A DNA stretch of 17,312 nucleotides, taken from the IMG/VR virus record IMGVR_UViG_2850790056_000002; one strand, 5' to 3'. The position numbers and the translations under genes are program-made. Each line of letters starts with the position of its first letter. The stretch's first letter is position 1. Positions 11,568-16,520 of the stretch are shown piece by piece. The notes under the pieces were generated by a model that was not told the origin of the DNA, did no database searches, and saw only the letters and a program-made list of their open reading frames with translations. This stretch comes from a virus. Lineage: Duplodnaviria > Heunggongvirae > Uroviricota > Caudoviricetes.

Positions 11568-11753
11568 ATGACTCAAAACTATGAACTGGTTGTGAAAGGG
11601 ATCCGCAATTTTGAGAATAAGGTTACGGTAACTTTAGCATTACAGGACAAAGAACGCTTTGACGGTGAAATTTTTGACCTGGACATCTCGCTGGACCGTG
11701 TTGAAGGTGCCGCGCTGGAGTTTTATGAGGCAGCGGCCAGAAGGAGCATCTGA
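11568..11753 (+). pseudogene. YdfR-like (DUF1327-like) lysis-cassette gene, 3'-truncated by IS600
   Basis: ORF begins 5 nt after the holin stop; its stop codon tga (11751-11753) is the first three bases of the IS600 terminal repeat; family assignment from recollection of Qin gene order essQ-ydfR-rrrQ. Confidence 0.45.
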
Positions 11754-12187
11754 GGTGTACTGGCAATAGCGAACACTACCATTTGTTCTTTTTTTAAGCA
11801 GCCATCTGATGATATTTTTCCCTGAAGGCTGCCGGGGAGATATTCCCCAGACGAGAGTGACGACGCTGACGATTGTAGAAAATCTCAATGTATTCCCGTA
11901 TTACTGAGATGGCTTCATCCCGGTTATTAAAACGATAGTGGCTCAGGCTCTCATTTTTCAGCGTTCCCCAGAAGCTTTCCATCGGAGCGTTGTCGTAACA
12001 GTTACCTTTACGCGACATTGATGTTTTCAGACCAAACTGCTCCTGTATGACCCGGTAATCGTATGCGCAGTACTGTGAACCTCGATCAGAGTGGTGGATT
12101 AGTCCGGCAGGTGGGCGCTGGCTCCTGAGCGCCATAAACAGGGCTTTACCTGTCAGCTCTTTTGTCATGCGCTCTCCCATGGCGTAG
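11751..12187 (-). mobile_element. IS600 fragment (copy 2): 3'-terminal ~437 bp including the right inverted repeat, inverted orientation
   Basis: Plus strand reads tgaggtgtactggcaatagcgaacactacc... (IS600 right end, reverse complement); homology ends at 12187 where the IS911 terminus begins. Confidence 0.85.
11794..12187 (-). pseudogene. IS600 orfB, C-terminal fragment
   Basis: 128-aa ORF identical to the C-terminal part of OrfB from copy 1; terminates with taa rather than tag. Confidence 0.85.
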
Positions 12188-13072
12188 TGAAGTGGTCAAC
12201 AAAAACTGGCCACCGAGTTAGAGTTTTTCCAGTATCGATTTTCCGATTCGTTTGGGGGTAACCCACCGTTATATTCGTGCGGTCTTAGTGCGCTGTAATA
12301 TCCAACGATATAATCCGTTATGGCGTGAGCTGCCTCGCTGAAGCTTACGTAACCCACCACCGGCATCCATTCGTTCTTCAGACTTCTAAAGAAGCGTTCC
12401 ATTGGGCTGTTATCCCGGCAATTTCCGCGCCGGCTCATACTCTGCCTGATCTGGTATCGCCACAATAACTGCCGGAACTGCCTGCTCGTATAATGACTGC
12501 CCTGATCGCTGTGGAACATCACCCCGCCGGGCTTACCACGGGTTTCCCATGCCATTTCCAGCGCTTTCATGGTGAGCCTGCTGTCCGGCGAGAACGACAT
12601 GGCCCAGCCCACTGGTTTTCTTGCGAACCGGTCGAGAACAACGGCGAGGTACGCCCAGCGCTTACCCGTCCAGATATAGGTCACATCACCGCACCACACC
12701 TGATTTGGCTCGGTCACGGCGAACTGCCGTTCAAGGTAGTTAGGGATAGCAACATGTTCATGACCACCACGTTTATACCGGTGAGTCGGCTGCTGACAGC
12801 TGACCAGCCCCAGCTCTTTCATGAGCCTGCCAGCAAGCCAGCGTCCCATCTGGTAGCCTCTCCGGGTTGCCATTGTGGCGATGCTTCTTGCTCCGGCCGA
12901 ACCGTGGCTGATGCCATGTAGCTCAAGTACCTGACTGCGTAATACAGCCCGTCTGCCGTCTGGTTTTTCAGGACGGTTTTTCCAGTATCTGTAGCTGCTG
13001 CGATGAACCCCGAACACATGGCAGAGTGTGACCACAGGATAATGCGCTCTGAGTTTCCCGATTATCGAGAAC
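12188..13072 (-). mobile_element. IS911 fragment (IS3 family): right inverted repeat and most of orfB; left ~365 bp (left repeat and orfA) absent
   Basis: Plus strand at 12188 reads TGAAGTGGTCAACAAAAACTGGCCACCGAGTTAGAG, which I recall as the IS911 right repeat; OrfB-like ORF on minus strand; abrupt junction with the IS600 left end at 13073. Confidence 0.8.
12196..13072 (-). pseudogene. IS911 orfB (DDE transposase), 5'-truncated; the apparent Met start at 13098 lies inside the neighbouring IS600 terminal repeat
   Basis: ORF-track 12196-13098 (300 aa) with IS3-family DDE motifs (WCGDVTY..., HSDQGSHY..., [12 protein letters not shown]). Confidence 0.8.
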
Positions 13073-14338
13073 TGAGGTAGCCTGAGTTTAACGGACACTC
13101 CTTCCTGAAATAGAATGGTATCAGAAGGAGCTAATAATGAGCAGAAAAACCCAACGTTACTCTAAAGAGTTCAAAGCCGAAGCTGTCAGAATGGTTCTTG
13201 AAAATCAACTTTCGATCAGTGAAGGCGCTTCCCGATTATCCCTTCCTGAAGGCACTTTAGGACAATGGGTTACCGCCGCCAGAAAAGGGCTCGGTACTCC
13301 TGGTTCCCGCACGGTGGCTGAACTGGAATCTGAAATTCTGCAACTGCGTAAGGCGTTAAATGAAGCTCGCCTTGAGCGAGATATATTAAAAAAAGCAACA
13401 GCGTATTTTGCACAGGAGTCGCTGAAAAATACGCGTTAATCGAACAATGGCGACAACAATTTCCCATTGAAGTGATGTGTCAGGTATTTGGTGTATCCAG
13501 GAGCGGTTATTACAACTGGGTACAGCATAAACCCTCAGACAGAAAACAAAGTGATGAGCGACTAAAACTGGAGATTAAGGTGGCACATATCCGCACTCGC
13601 GAAACATATGGAACCCGGCGGCTCCAGACGGAGCTGGCAGAGAATGGCATCATCGTTGGTCGTGACCGACTGGCACGTCTTCGTAAGGAGCTAAGGCTAC
13701 GCTGTAAGCAGAAACGCAAGTTCAGAGCGACTACGAACTCGAACCACAATCTGCCAGTTGCGCCAAATCTGCTGAACCAGACGTTCGCTCCTACAGCACC
13801 AAATCAGGTCTGGGTGGCGGACCTGACGTATGTTGCCACACAGGAGGGATGGTTGTACCTCGCTGGCATCAAAGATGTTTATACGTGCGAAATTGTCGGC
13901 TACGCCATGGGAGAGCGCATGACAAAAGAGCTGACAGGTAAAGCCCTGTTTATGGCGCTCAGGAGCCAGCGCCCACCTGCCGGGCTAATCCACCACTCTG
14001 ATCGAGGTTCACAGTACTGCGCATACGATTACCGGGTCATACAGGAGCAGTTTGGTCTGAAAACATCAATGTCGCGTAAAGGTAACTGTTACGACAACGC
14101 TCCGATGGAAAGCTTCTGGGGAACGCTGAAAAATGAGAGCCTGAGCCACTATCGTTTTAATAACCGGGATGAAGCCATCTCAGTAATACGGGAATACATT
14201 GAGATTTTCTACAATCGTCAGCGTCGTCACTCTCGTCTGGGGAATATCTCCCCGGCAGCCTTCAGGGAAAAATATCATCAGATGGCTGTGCTTAAAAAAA
14301 GAACAAATGGTAGTGTCCGCTATTGCCAGTACACCTCA
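13073..14338 (+). mobile_element. IS600 copy 3, full length (1266 bp; variant with 2-bp insertion near the orfB stop), no flanking direct repeat
   Basis: Both terminal repeats present; left flank is the IS911 fragment; gctgtgctt at 14284-14292 versus gctgctt in copy 1. Confidence 0.9.
13137..13439 (+). CDS. IS600 OrfA
   Basis: 100-aa ORF, one substitution (T to M) relative to copy 1. Confidence 0.9.
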
Positions 14339-14596: not shown

Positions 14597-14899
14597 ATGA
14601 GCAGAAAAACCCAACGTTACTCTAAAGAGTTCAAAGCCGAAGCTGTCAGAACGGTTCTTGAAAATCAACTTTCGATCAGTGAAGGCGCTTCCCGATTATC
14701 CCTTCCTGAAGGCCCTTTAGGACAATGGGTTACCGCCGCCAGAAAAGGGCTCGGTACTCCTGGTTCCCGCACGGTGGCTGAACTGGAATCTGAAATTCTG
14801 CAACTGCGTAAGGCGTTAAATGAAGCTCGCCTTGAGCGAGATATATTAAAAAAAGCAACAGCGTATTTTGCACAGGAGTCGCTGAAAAATACGCGTTAA
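14597..14899 (+). CDS. IS600 OrfA
   Basis: 100-aa ORF, one substitution (T to P) relative to copy 1. Confidence 0.85.
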   Translation: MSRKTQRYSKEFKAEAVRTVLENQLSISEGASRLSLPEGPLGQWVTAARKGLGTPGSRTVAELESEILQLRKALNEARLERDILKKATAYFAQESLKNTR

Positions 14900-14934
14900 T
14901 CGAACAATGGCGACAACAATTTCCCATTGAAGCG

Positions 14935-15254
14935 ATGTGTCAGGTATTTGGTGTATCCAGGAGCGGTTATTACAACTGGGTACAGCATGAACCCTCAGAC
15001 AGAAAACAAAGTGATGAGCGACTAAAACTGGAGATTAAGGTGGCACATATCCGCACTCGCGAAACATATGGAACCCGGCGGCTCCAGACGGAGCTGGCAG
15101 AGAATGGCATCATCGTTGGTCGTGACCGACTGGCACGTCTTCGTAAGGAGCTAAGGCTACGCTGTAAGCAGAAACGCAAGTTCAGAGCGACTACGAACTC
15201 GAACCACAATCTGCCAGTTGCGCCAAATCTGCTGAACCAGACGTTCGCTCCTAC
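14935..15254 (+). pseudogene. IS600 orfB, truncated after ~106 codons by the adjacent IS600 copy
   Basis: ORF-track 14935-15267 ends ...NQTFAPTEVA; the last codons derive from the terminal repeat of copy 5. Confidence 0.85.
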
Positions 15255-16520
15255 TGAGGTAGCCTGAGTTTAACGGACACTCCTTCCTGAAATAGAATGG
15301 CATCAGAAGGAGCTAATAATGAGCAGAAAAACCCAACGTTACTCTAAAGAGTTCAAAGCCGAAGCTGTCAGAACGGTTCTTGAAAATCAACTTTCGATCA
15401 GTGAAGGCGCTTCCCGATTATCCCTTCCTGAAGGCACTTTAGGACAATGGGTTACCGCCGCCAGAAAAGGGCTCGGTACTCCTGGTTCCCGCACGGTGGC
15501 TGAACTGGAATCTGAAATTCTGCAACTGCGTAAGGCGTTAAATGAAGCTCGCCTTGAGCGAGATATATTAAAAAAAGCAACAGCGTATTTTGCACAGGAG
15601 TCGCTGAAAAATACGCGTTAATCGAACAATGGCGACAACAATTTCCCATTGAAGCGATGTGTCAGGTATTTGGTGTATCCAGGAGCGGTTATTACAACTG
15701 GGTACAGCATAAACCCTCAGACAGAAAACAAAGTGATGAGCGACTAAAACTGGAGATTAAGGTGGCACATATCCGCACTCGCGAAACATATGGAACCCGG
15801 CGGCTCCAGACGGAGCTGGCAGAGAATGGCATCATCGTTGGTCGTGACCGACTGGCACGTCTTCGTAAGGAGCTAAGGCTACGCTGTAAGCAGAAACGCA
15901 AGTTCAGAGCGACTACGAACTCGAACCACAATCTGCCAGTTGCGCCAAATCTGCTGAACCAGACGTTCGCTCCTACAGCACCAAATCAGGTCTGGGTGGC
16001 GGACCTGACGTATGTTGCCACACAGGAGGGATGGTTGTACCTCGCTGGCATCAAAGATGTTTATACGTGCGAAATTGTCGGCTACGCCATGGGAGAGCGC
16101 ATGACAAAAGAGCTGACAGGTAAAGCCCTGTTTATGGCGCTCAGGAGCCAGCGCCCACCTGCCGGGCTAATCCACCACTCTGATCGAGGTTCACAGTACT
16201 GCGCATACGATTACCGGGTCATACAGGAGCAGTTTGGTCTGAAAACATCAATGTCGCGTAAAGGTAACTGTTACGACAACGCTCCGATGGAAAGCTTCTG
16301 GGGAACGCTGAAAAATGAGAGCCTGAGCCACTATCGTTTTAATAACCGGGATGAAGCCATCTCAGTAATACGGGAATACATTGAGATTTTCTACAATCGT
16401 CAGCGTCGTCACTCTCGTCTGGGGAATATCTCCCCGGCAGCCTTCAGGGAAAAATATCATCAGATGGCTGTGCTTAAAAAAAGAACAAATGGTAGTGTCC
16501 GCTATTGCCAGTACACCTCA
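15255..16520 (+). mobile_element. IS600 copy 5, full length (1266 bp; same 2-bp-insertion variant as copy 3), no flanking direct repeat
   Basis: Both terminal repeats present; flanks tac versus act do not match; gctgtgctt at 16467-16475. Confidence 0.9.
15319..15621 (+). CDS. IS600 OrfA
   Basis: 100-aa ORF identical to copy 1 OrfA. Confidence 0.9.
   Translation: MSRKTQRYSKEFKAEAVRTVLENQLSISEGASRLSLPEGTLGQWVTAARKGLGTPGSRTVAELESEILQLRKALNEARLERDILKKATAYFAQESLKNTR

Follow-up and report, generated by a model that had tools for sequence, protein, structure and literature searches.

The 17,312-nt stretch of DNA analyzed here (the window), from Shigella dysenteriae type 1 (SD1) strain 08-3380 (CP026782), raises the question of how a mosaic of IS600 and IS911 sequences came to occupy the lysis and morphogenesis region of a lambdoid prophage. 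This prophage, which adjoins sitABCD/uspF/ompN/ydbK, is defective: its late-gene order is partly kept (Q, tRNAs, holin, truncated ydfR, tail-fibre C-terminus and a DUF4376 gene), and its essential modules are gone. Indeed, comparison with phiP27 and with the locus of an intact ydfR homologue revealed no R, Rz, terminase, head or tail genes, which upholds the original prediction that the mosaic replaces them. The last intact late gene before the mosaic encodes holin S (11348-11563, plus strand; Pfam PF04971, Phage_holin_2_1) and is 98% identical to phage genes annotated 'holin/antiholin component S'. To the right of the mosaic lies the tail-fibre-assembly-like DUF4376 gene (16738-17312, plus strand; PF14301), which is frameshifted when compared with the 208-aa product of EIEC; sitABCD comes after it in the genome and is untouched by the rearrangement. 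The SD1 Stx prophage remnant located at sapC-ychK is also a defective lambdoid element, riddled with IS1, IS2, IS600 and IS911 and stripped of its structural genes (Sd197 genome; PMC7819885). Identity with it was nonetheless rejected, because the window prophage has no stx and lies by sitABCD/uspF/ompN/ydbK.

Self-BLAST and a repeat finder placed all six mosaic segments, lettered a to f in what follows, exactly where they had been predicted. IS3-group elements typically contain overlapping orfA (HTH) and orfB (DDE rve) genes between imperfect terminal inverted repeats of the type TG...CA. The copies in the window are IS600 (IS3 family, IS3 group), as evidenced by their ~99% match to E. coli RefSeq features annotated 'IS3-like element IS600 family transposase', a length of 1264-1266 bp (full length, ~1264 bp), orfA and orfB products of 100 and 272 aa (PF01527, PF13276, PF00665 and PF13683), and terminal repeats reading TGAGGTAGCC... 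and ...GTACACCTCA. Copy 1 (7121-8385, plus strand), which stands outside the mosaic, is a simple insertion between direct 3-bp duplications, AAT/AAT, as had been noticed before. The two full copies within the mosaic, c (13073-14338, 1266 bp) and f (15255-16520; self-BLAST and base comparison), lie on the plus strand like copy 1, and the three show 99.3-99.8% mutual identity in self-BLAST. Both c and f harbor a private TG insertion at nt 1215-1216 and two SNPs, and they differ from each other by three C>T changes. This TG variant was found neither at any other locus compared nor in GTDB representative genomes, and c is absent from every other SD1 locus compared.

Alignment with related strains, which had been proposed as a check, delivered the ancestral arrangement from L004 and Sd197. 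Sister SD1 genomes display, in this order, holin S, a cut ydfR, one inverted IS600 (with a complete IS911) and a tail-fibre gene of which the final 135 codons remain. The ydfR-family gene (DUF1327; 11568-11753, plus strand; PF07041) is cut at codon 61, where the ancestral deletion begins on the left, and takes its TGA stop from the IS600 end; the joint at 11750/11751 reads ...GGAGCATC|TGAGGTGTAC and also occurs in all SD1 assemblies and in Logan contig L019. An intact ydfR homologue measures 351 bp, with the lysozyme R and Rz genes next in line. On the other side, the IS600 left end abuts the tail-fibre gene, a joint now found at 14532/14533. No target duplication flanks the ancestral IS600, and these outer joints, common to all SD1 genomes examined, are deletion endpoints. 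In this first layer, a single inverted IS600 connects ydfR (codon 61) to the tail-fibre gene (~codon 337) and marks the loss of R/Rz for lysis and of the genes for head and tail; either an adjacent deletion caused by IS600 or a recombination event involving two of its copies may have brought this about. The lambdoid phage phiP27, which has a Mu-like tail, shares its layout with the window: Q, ileZ-like and argO tRNAs (91.7% identical), the toxin slot and the lysis region, with a tail fibre and a DUF4376 gene (L57, 80% identical) closing the far end. In the window, however, IS1 occupies the toxin slot, and the DNA between the middle of ydfR and codon ~337 of the tail-fibre gene (~21 kb in phiP27) has been lost. 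Measured on this yardstick, the missing lysis and morphogenesis DNA amounts to ~21-22 kb, rather than the ~30 kb first proposed, and the SD1 common ancestor already carried a dead prophage here.

A second layer is the insertion of IS911. Segment a (11751-12187, minus strand) derives from the right-hand portion of the ancestral IS600 and spans its nt 1264-828 in inverted orientation; it is colinear at 100% with L004 6868-7304, and its reverse complement begins at IS600 nt 828. Segment b (12188-13072, minus strand) comprises 885 bp of IS911, namely its right end, TGAAGTGGTCAACAAAAACTGGCC, and orfB, which is read as an ORF at 12196-13098. In L004, IS911 is complete (7305-8553) and matches RefSeq-annotated IS911 at 99.5% identity over 1249 bp; the rest of the IS600 (nt 830-1, 8554-9383) and then the tail-fibre gene (from 9384 onward) follow it. 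In this and other sister strains IS911 is flanked by a duplicated TAG. The element is present in most SD1 strains, and Sd197 has the same IS600 uninterrupted. IS911 thus entered the ancestral IS600 at nt 828-830, duplicating TAG, so that the a/b joint is one half of an ordinary insertion and the claim that none of the joints reflects simple insertion fails at this point. The window retains L004 6417-8191 at 100% (11300-13074) and has lost the left ~364 bp of IS911, including orfA and the left end. The element that persists in 08-3380 is thus a remnant and not a functional IS911.

Against this background, 08-3380 alone among the SD1 strains has gained c and f as direct repeats, lost 470-472 bp (L004 8190-8661) and inverted 916 bp (L004 8662-9577), a block that consists of IS600 nt 722-1 and 194 bp of tail fibre. 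The left end of c joins IS911 and its right end an inverted tail-fibre piece, d (14339-14532, minus strand), identified by translation and alignment as codons ~337-401 of 471; d corresponds to L004 9384-9577 and aligns in reverse orientation with the tail-fibre gene of EIEC at 96.9% identity. Segment e (14533-15254, plus strand), inverted together with d according to the L004 comparison, comprises nt 1-722 of the ancestral IS600 and carries its diagnostic bases (nt 182 C and nt 457 G), unlike c and f; window 14337-15254 matches L004 9579-8662 with one mismatch in 918 bp. The left end of f joins IS600 nt 722, whereas its right end is followed by ACT and the last ~70 tail-fibre codons, segment g (16521-16736, plus strand). 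The 194-bp orphan is therefore not a vestige of a deleted gene, as initially proposed, but, in reverse complement, a piece of the tail-fibre gene that resumes at 16521. Chimeric ORFs at 14935-15267 and 15657-16760 occur in CP026782 only. An in silico product that follows the deletion-inversion model set out below, made of L004 6417-8189, c, the reverse complement of L004 8662-9577, f and L004 9575-10366 reproduced window 11300-17312 at 6012 of 6013 bases, with one mismatch.

The intact tail-fibre gene reads ...CATCAGACTTGTCAGG..., with a single ACT. In 08-3380 this triplet is duplicated in inverted orientation, as AGT (14339-14341) by the right end of c and ACT (16521-16523) by the right end of f. 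The original statement that the joints lack 3-bp duplications thus holds for direct ones, which flank neither c nor f, but not for the inverted pair at the c/d and f/g joints. Likewise, its reading of the joints as recombination or deletion endpoints stands for the outer ones and fails for the inner ones, where ACT and AGT adjoin right ends. An inverted duplication beside two like ends is the signature of deletion-inversion. The other features of such an event are also present: inversion of an IS with the contiguous DNA up to the target, loss of the central segment and an outcome in direct repeats. The two extra IS600 copies, the 916-bp flip and the ~470-bp loss look like a single transposition step. 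The mosaic is real and layered, and its third layer was, in our judgment, probably produced by the IS600 transposase through deletion-inversion of the Tn10 type; the outcome can be read from the genomes, and the pathway is what we infer for strain 08-3380. Two private-variant IS600 copies would have landed 472 bp apart in inverted orientation with their right ends facing, one in IS911 and the other at nt 722 of the old IS600. Transposase would then have paired these two inner right ends and transferred them to a target within the same DNA molecule, a staggered cut made at ACT in what remains of the tail-fibre gene, 916 bp away. As a result, the intervening 472 bp would be lost, one IS600 would be flipped along with the neighboring 916 bp, the two copies would be left as direct repeats, and the 3-bp target would be present twice, in inverted orientation, next to the two right ends.

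In the Tn10 deletion-inversion, the central segment is deleted and one IS is inverted with its adjacent segment, which yields direct repeats that both join the target (Kleckner; PMC2723962). The 08-3380 locus would share with Tn10/IS10 the use of facing inside ends of an inverted IS pair, and it does share the loss of intervening DNA, the flip of an IS with the DNA up to the target, the direct-repeat outcome and the inverted target duplication by two like ends. It differs in that the duplication is 3 bp for IS600 instead of 9 bp, that the putative precursor pair would stem from chance insertions 472 bp apart instead of a composite transposon, and that IS600, as an IS3-family member, is believed to transpose through joined ends in a copy-out-paste-in process instead of by hairpin cut-and-paste. 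Joined ends of copy-out-paste-in elements also generate intramolecular deletions and inversions: in IS30 dimers and in the tandem dimers of IS911, IS2, IS3 and IS150, the joined ends of different copies attack a site close by within the same replicon and the junction is eliminated (PMC9333248). However, the documented active junction in these systems is left-right (IR-targeted junctions of IS30 are reported as exclusively so; PMC9333248), and the duplication adjoins one left and one right end, not two right ends as observed here.

Several points weigh against the deletion-inversion model. It needs three IS600 events in one lineage and right-right pairing where IS3-family elements normally pair left with right; c and f are not pristine twins; and the structure rests on one assembly. 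A precursor with the inverted IS600 pair was found in no assembly, and the ORF across the e/f junction, expected in that precursor too, was found in CP026782 only among the assemblies available; the closest relatives of the strain are CDC ZB4 and 40-81. Our literature search retrieved no experiment on IS600 regarding synapsis or transfer of two right ends, and to our knowledge right-right inside-end deletion-inversion is undocumented for the IS3 family. The locus suggests that an IS3-family element may be able to use two right ends. The private 2-bp insertion removes the orfB stop codon and is therefore predicted to let the transposase read through past the right end into flanking DNA, which, if true, might change how active the enzyme is or which ends it selects. 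Still, the fuller proposal that a copy-out-paste-in IS600 performed a Tn10-like inside-end deletion-inversion with two right ends, in three clustered events driven by the private variant, strikes us as doubtful.

A longer route to the same arrangement is improbable. The composite a-b-c could have transposed in reverse into ACT, whereupon recombination between the 2.6-kb inverted copies inverted the interval, a further IS600 entered nt 722 and an IS600-IS600 deletion removed the excess. This series likewise leaves ACT with a right end on either side, and its right-end-bounded unit a-b-c is visible in the window (11751-14338). However, it takes five events versus three, requires the same unorthodox right-right pairing and fails to predict, as the simpler model does, a loss that runs precisely from one left-end attachment point to the other.

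Homologous recombination between pre-existing IS600 copies, by deletions and inversions, as the source of all joints is decidedly improbable. Many 99%-identical copies in both orientations are at hand, IS-associated inversions are common in SD1, with dozens described in its genomes (PMC7819885), and the old outer joints, devoid of duplications, are compatible with it. Yet because IS-IS recombination keeps a flank at the same kind of end, never shifting it from a left to a right end, it is excluded for the ACT pattern, both halves of which adjoin right ends. Moreover, the left end/nt 722 and left end/IS911 interior joints connect non-homologous sites, and c and f are new, missing from sister strains. 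The 916-bp inversion is not in the published list of SD1 inversions (PMC7819885).

An assembly artefact, raised in the original prediction, is highly unlikely in view of the unique joints and of a structure that is mechanistically self-consistent to the base. Dense 1.27-kb repeats, a structure present in a single assembly and a CP026782 chromosome that exceeds other SD1 chromosomes by ~70-90 kb would speak for a repeat-induced mis-join or mis-orientation. A mis-join within repeats, however, mimics homologous recombination and cannot make a right end|AGT-inverted tail fibre joint, an nt 722|left end joint or a base-perfect inverted 3-bp duplication; in addition, c and f have a private 2-bp variant in common, and CP026782 is listed among complete SD1 genomes. 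Flipping of the tail-fibre piece by a phage invertase of the Gin/Cin/Pin type can practically be dismissed: Mu-like tail fibre/assembly modules are often invertible and relatives carry duplicated fibre/assembly gene pairs, but here the inversion endpoints are IS600 ends to the base, the flipped block includes 722 bp of IS600, neither an invertase gene nor crossover repeats are present, and the 3-bp duplication is not something invertases make.

Deletion-inversion by transposase is a kind of event already known, of which the 08-3380 locus is a tidy natural example. It has no functional effect on the phage and matters little for the organism, because the prophage was dead in the SD1 common ancestor and sitABCD is intact. 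As a worked example, the locus illustrates that joint-level reading combined with sister genomes separates a transposase-made rearrangement from homologous recombination in an IS-saturated genome, which is possible because the inverted 3-bp duplication adjoins like ends. The structure also provides a strain-specific marker for 08-3380. Its direct IS600 repeats will confound short-read assembly, and the same-orientation copies (c, e and f, together with the upstream copy 1) are, as reasonably inferred in the original prediction, putative substrates for further deletion or amplification.

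Self-BLAST and a repeat finder returned exactly the coordinates that the original prediction had assigned to every piece of the IS600/IS911 mosaic. Full-length IS600 elements lie on the plus strand at 7121-8385 (copy 1, with an AAT duplication), 13073-14338 (c) and 15255-16520 (f), and share 99.3-99.8% mutual identity by self-BLAST. The same searches placed a 5' IS600 fragment, nt 1-722, at 14533-15254 (+; e), while repeat comparison revealed an inverted 3' fragment, nt 1264-828, at 11751-12187 (-; a), followed by segment b (12188-13072, -), which starts with the right end of IS911 and carries IS911 orfB on the minus strand. 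As these repeats are kilobase-long and >99% identical, chance is of no concern. Two inverted IS1 copies at 6057-6822 and 8721-9487 (767 bp, 99.6% identical) enclose a DUF3927 ORF and IS600 copy 1, resembling a composite transposon or an invertible unit; a third identical IS1 occupies 1-709, and a divergent IS1 isoform 4926-5623.

Whole-region BLAST against E. coli genomes and phages was swamped by IS matches, and it was the unique segments that proved informative. Their BLAST showed that the 194-bp segment d (14339-14532, -), previously regarded as the orphan of a deleted gene, is the reverse complement of part of the tail-fibre gene, which continues at 16521 (+; g). Read on the opposite strand, the 3' end of d is ...CATCAGACT, the first bases of g are ACTTGTCAGG, and the intact gene across this boundary reads CATCAGACTTGTCAGG. 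It follows that ACT has been duplicated in inverted orientation, with one copy next to the right end of c and the other next to that of f; the claim that the junctions lack a 3-bp duplication holds for direct duplications only. Alignment to the locus of Shigella dysenteriae 1 (SD1) strain 69-3818 (L004) accounted for the remainder. Segments a and b are identical to L004 up to position 8189, with a 2-bp TG ambiguity at the boundary; L004 8190-8661, which comprises ~364 bp from the left of IS911 together with IS600 nt 830-723, is absent from the window; L004 8662-9577 (IS600 nt 722-1 and the 194-bp segment) is inverted, corresponding to window 14339-15254; and c and f are additional. That this structure is genuine and arose in this way from the ancestral arrangement is very probable.

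In 69-3818 and most other SD1 genomes, the ancestral order begins with holin S, followed by ydfR (DUF1327), truncated at codon 61, and inverted IS600 nt 1264-828; it proceeds with a complete inverted IS911 that has TAG duplicated at its flanks, then IS600 nt 830-1, the final 135 tail-fibre codons and DUF4376. The ancestral IS600 is uninterrupted, without IS911, in Sd197 (L006 8120-9383), and contains an extra IS1 in HNCMB 20080 (L003 7783-9383), which makes the locus a small hotspot for nested IS insertions across SD1 strains. Its flanks, ATC and CCC, show no target duplication, which indicates that the element marks an old deletion. In an intact relative, ydfR spans 351 bp and is followed by R and Rz, and in phage phiP27 the holin is separated from the corresponding tail-fibre gene by ~21-22 kb. 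The phiP27 interval makes the suggested ~30 kb somewhat high, but the proposed loss of lysis, head and tail genes stands. In the window, holin S and the start of the DUF1737 gene have an IS2 between them (~10010-11340). In a short-read contig from a different sample (Logan ERR1014541), the ydfR/IS600 joint is identical to that of the window, but an intact 591-aa gene and DUF826 lie 5' of S, without IS2; the old deletion joint is accordingly older than part of the IS load.

Elements c and f have in common two private SNPs and a private 2-bp TG insertion at IS600 nt 1215-1216, marked by CAGATGGCTGTGCTTAAAAAAAG, whereas e retains the SNPs of the ancestral copy; c carries three additional C>T changes. 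The TG insertion abolishes the orfB stop, so that the transposase ORF continues past the right end into the flank, yielding chimeric ORFs of 300 aa (13472-14374) and 367 aa (15657-16760). A pattern search recovered the TG variant neither at any other locus fetched nor in GTDB representative genomes. Similarly, CP026782 was the sole match in public records to the junction ORFs 15657-16760 and 14935-15267, the latter spanning the e/f junction.

The rearrangement could have started from a precursor in which c (+) sat within IS911, after ...CGAGAAC, while the ancestral IS600 held f in inverted orientation at nt 722, their right ends facing each other over 472 bp. These two inside right ends would then have attacked ACT in the tail-fibre remnant of the same molecule. 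This single model reproduces all four new joints, and it explains why the lost DNA is exactly the interval between the two left-end attachment points and why ancestral SNPs reside in e but the private TG and two SNPs in c and f. The product built in silico from L004, c and f differs from window 11300-17312 at a single one of 6013 bp, and that mismatch is a polymorphism common to other strains. In Tn10 deletion-inversion, central DNA is lost and one IS is inverted together with the adjacent segment, leaving direct IS repeats that both join the target (PMC2723962), a topology shared by the proposed IS600 event. On the other hand, the model requires three IS600 events in one lineage, c and f are not identical, and a precursor with the inverted IS600 pair was not found. 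Furthermore, although copy-out-paste-in IS elements do generate deletions and inversions within one molecule from joined ends, the junctions documented for them pair a left with a right end (PMC9333248), which makes the right-right pairing proposed here unorthodox. On balance, we consider it likely that the inside-end right-right pathway produced the rearrangement.

Among other explanations, an assembly artefact through repeat mis-joining is unlikely, since such a mis-join acts like homologous recombination and can generate neither unique joints nor a base-perfect inverted duplication. Homologous recombination itself, whether deleting or inverting, keeps a flank beside the same kind of IS end and hence could not have left both ACT halves beside right ends; the earlier interpretation of the junctions as recombination endpoints fails at these inner joints. 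Combining it with simple insertions was rejected as well, since two separate, oppositely oriented insertions would have had to hit the same 3 bp, in addition to homology-free deletions. Replicative inversion by a single IS, whether the donor is placed at ACT or at the site in IS911, delivers only half the joints and one wrongly oriented IS600, as does attack by a left-right dimer junction. Invertase switching is contradicted by the inversion endpoints.

Both IS-driven prophage decay and IS-associated inversions are well known in SD1, and Tn10 is the textbook case of the deletion-inversion topology. Novelty is limited to the strain-specific instance, the published SD1 inversion list holding no entry for this prophage locus, and to the implied use of two right ends by an IS3-family element.

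CP026782.1, the one record with these junction ORFs, is listed as S. dysenteriae type 1 strain 08-3380 (PMC7819885), and the mosaic region maps to about 3,537,000-3,543,500 in it. The closest relatives of this strain are CDC ZB4, at a distance of 37 SNPs, 40-81 and 80-547. The prophage locus is also present in Sd197 and at least seven further SD1 assemblies, and is followed 3' by sitABCD, uspF, ompN, one IS600 and ydbK. IS600-flanked amplification has been reported for the SD1 Stx prophage. Homology comparison detected no stx homology or remnant anywhere in the window, and this, along with the sitABCD/uspF/ompN/ydbK neighborhood, ruled out the Stx prophage first suspected, which in SD1 is located between sapC and ychK (PMC7819885). 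The early part of the window contains DUF968, RusA, Q and two tRNAs, followed by IS1 copies, IS600 copy 1, the IS2 and holin S. An ORF for a small toxic peptide resembling Hok/Gef (MKQQKAMLIALIVICLTVIVTALVTRKDLCEVRIRTGQTEVAVFTAYEPEE) occupies 1159-1371, within the early-right part of the remnant prophage. The tRNA-Met(CAT) and tRNA-Arg(TCT) genes 3' of Q (4544-4842) are 91.7% identical to the phiP27 ileZ-argO pair, which sits 5' of stx2e, whereas in the window the toxin-operon slot (4926-6074) is filled by the IS1 isoform and an ORF of 108-117 aa with no assigned function. At the other end, the DUF4376 tail-fibre-assembly-like gene (16738-17312) carries a frameshift in a T-run when compared with its 208-aa EIEC homologue, leaving only a 121-125-aa C-terminal ORF. 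In EIEC RMDEC465 (L001 9968-11611), an ipaH effector gene comes after the tail-fibre and DUF4376 homologues, and comparison with a further locus (L002 11857-15306) places sitABCD at the matching position in SD1.
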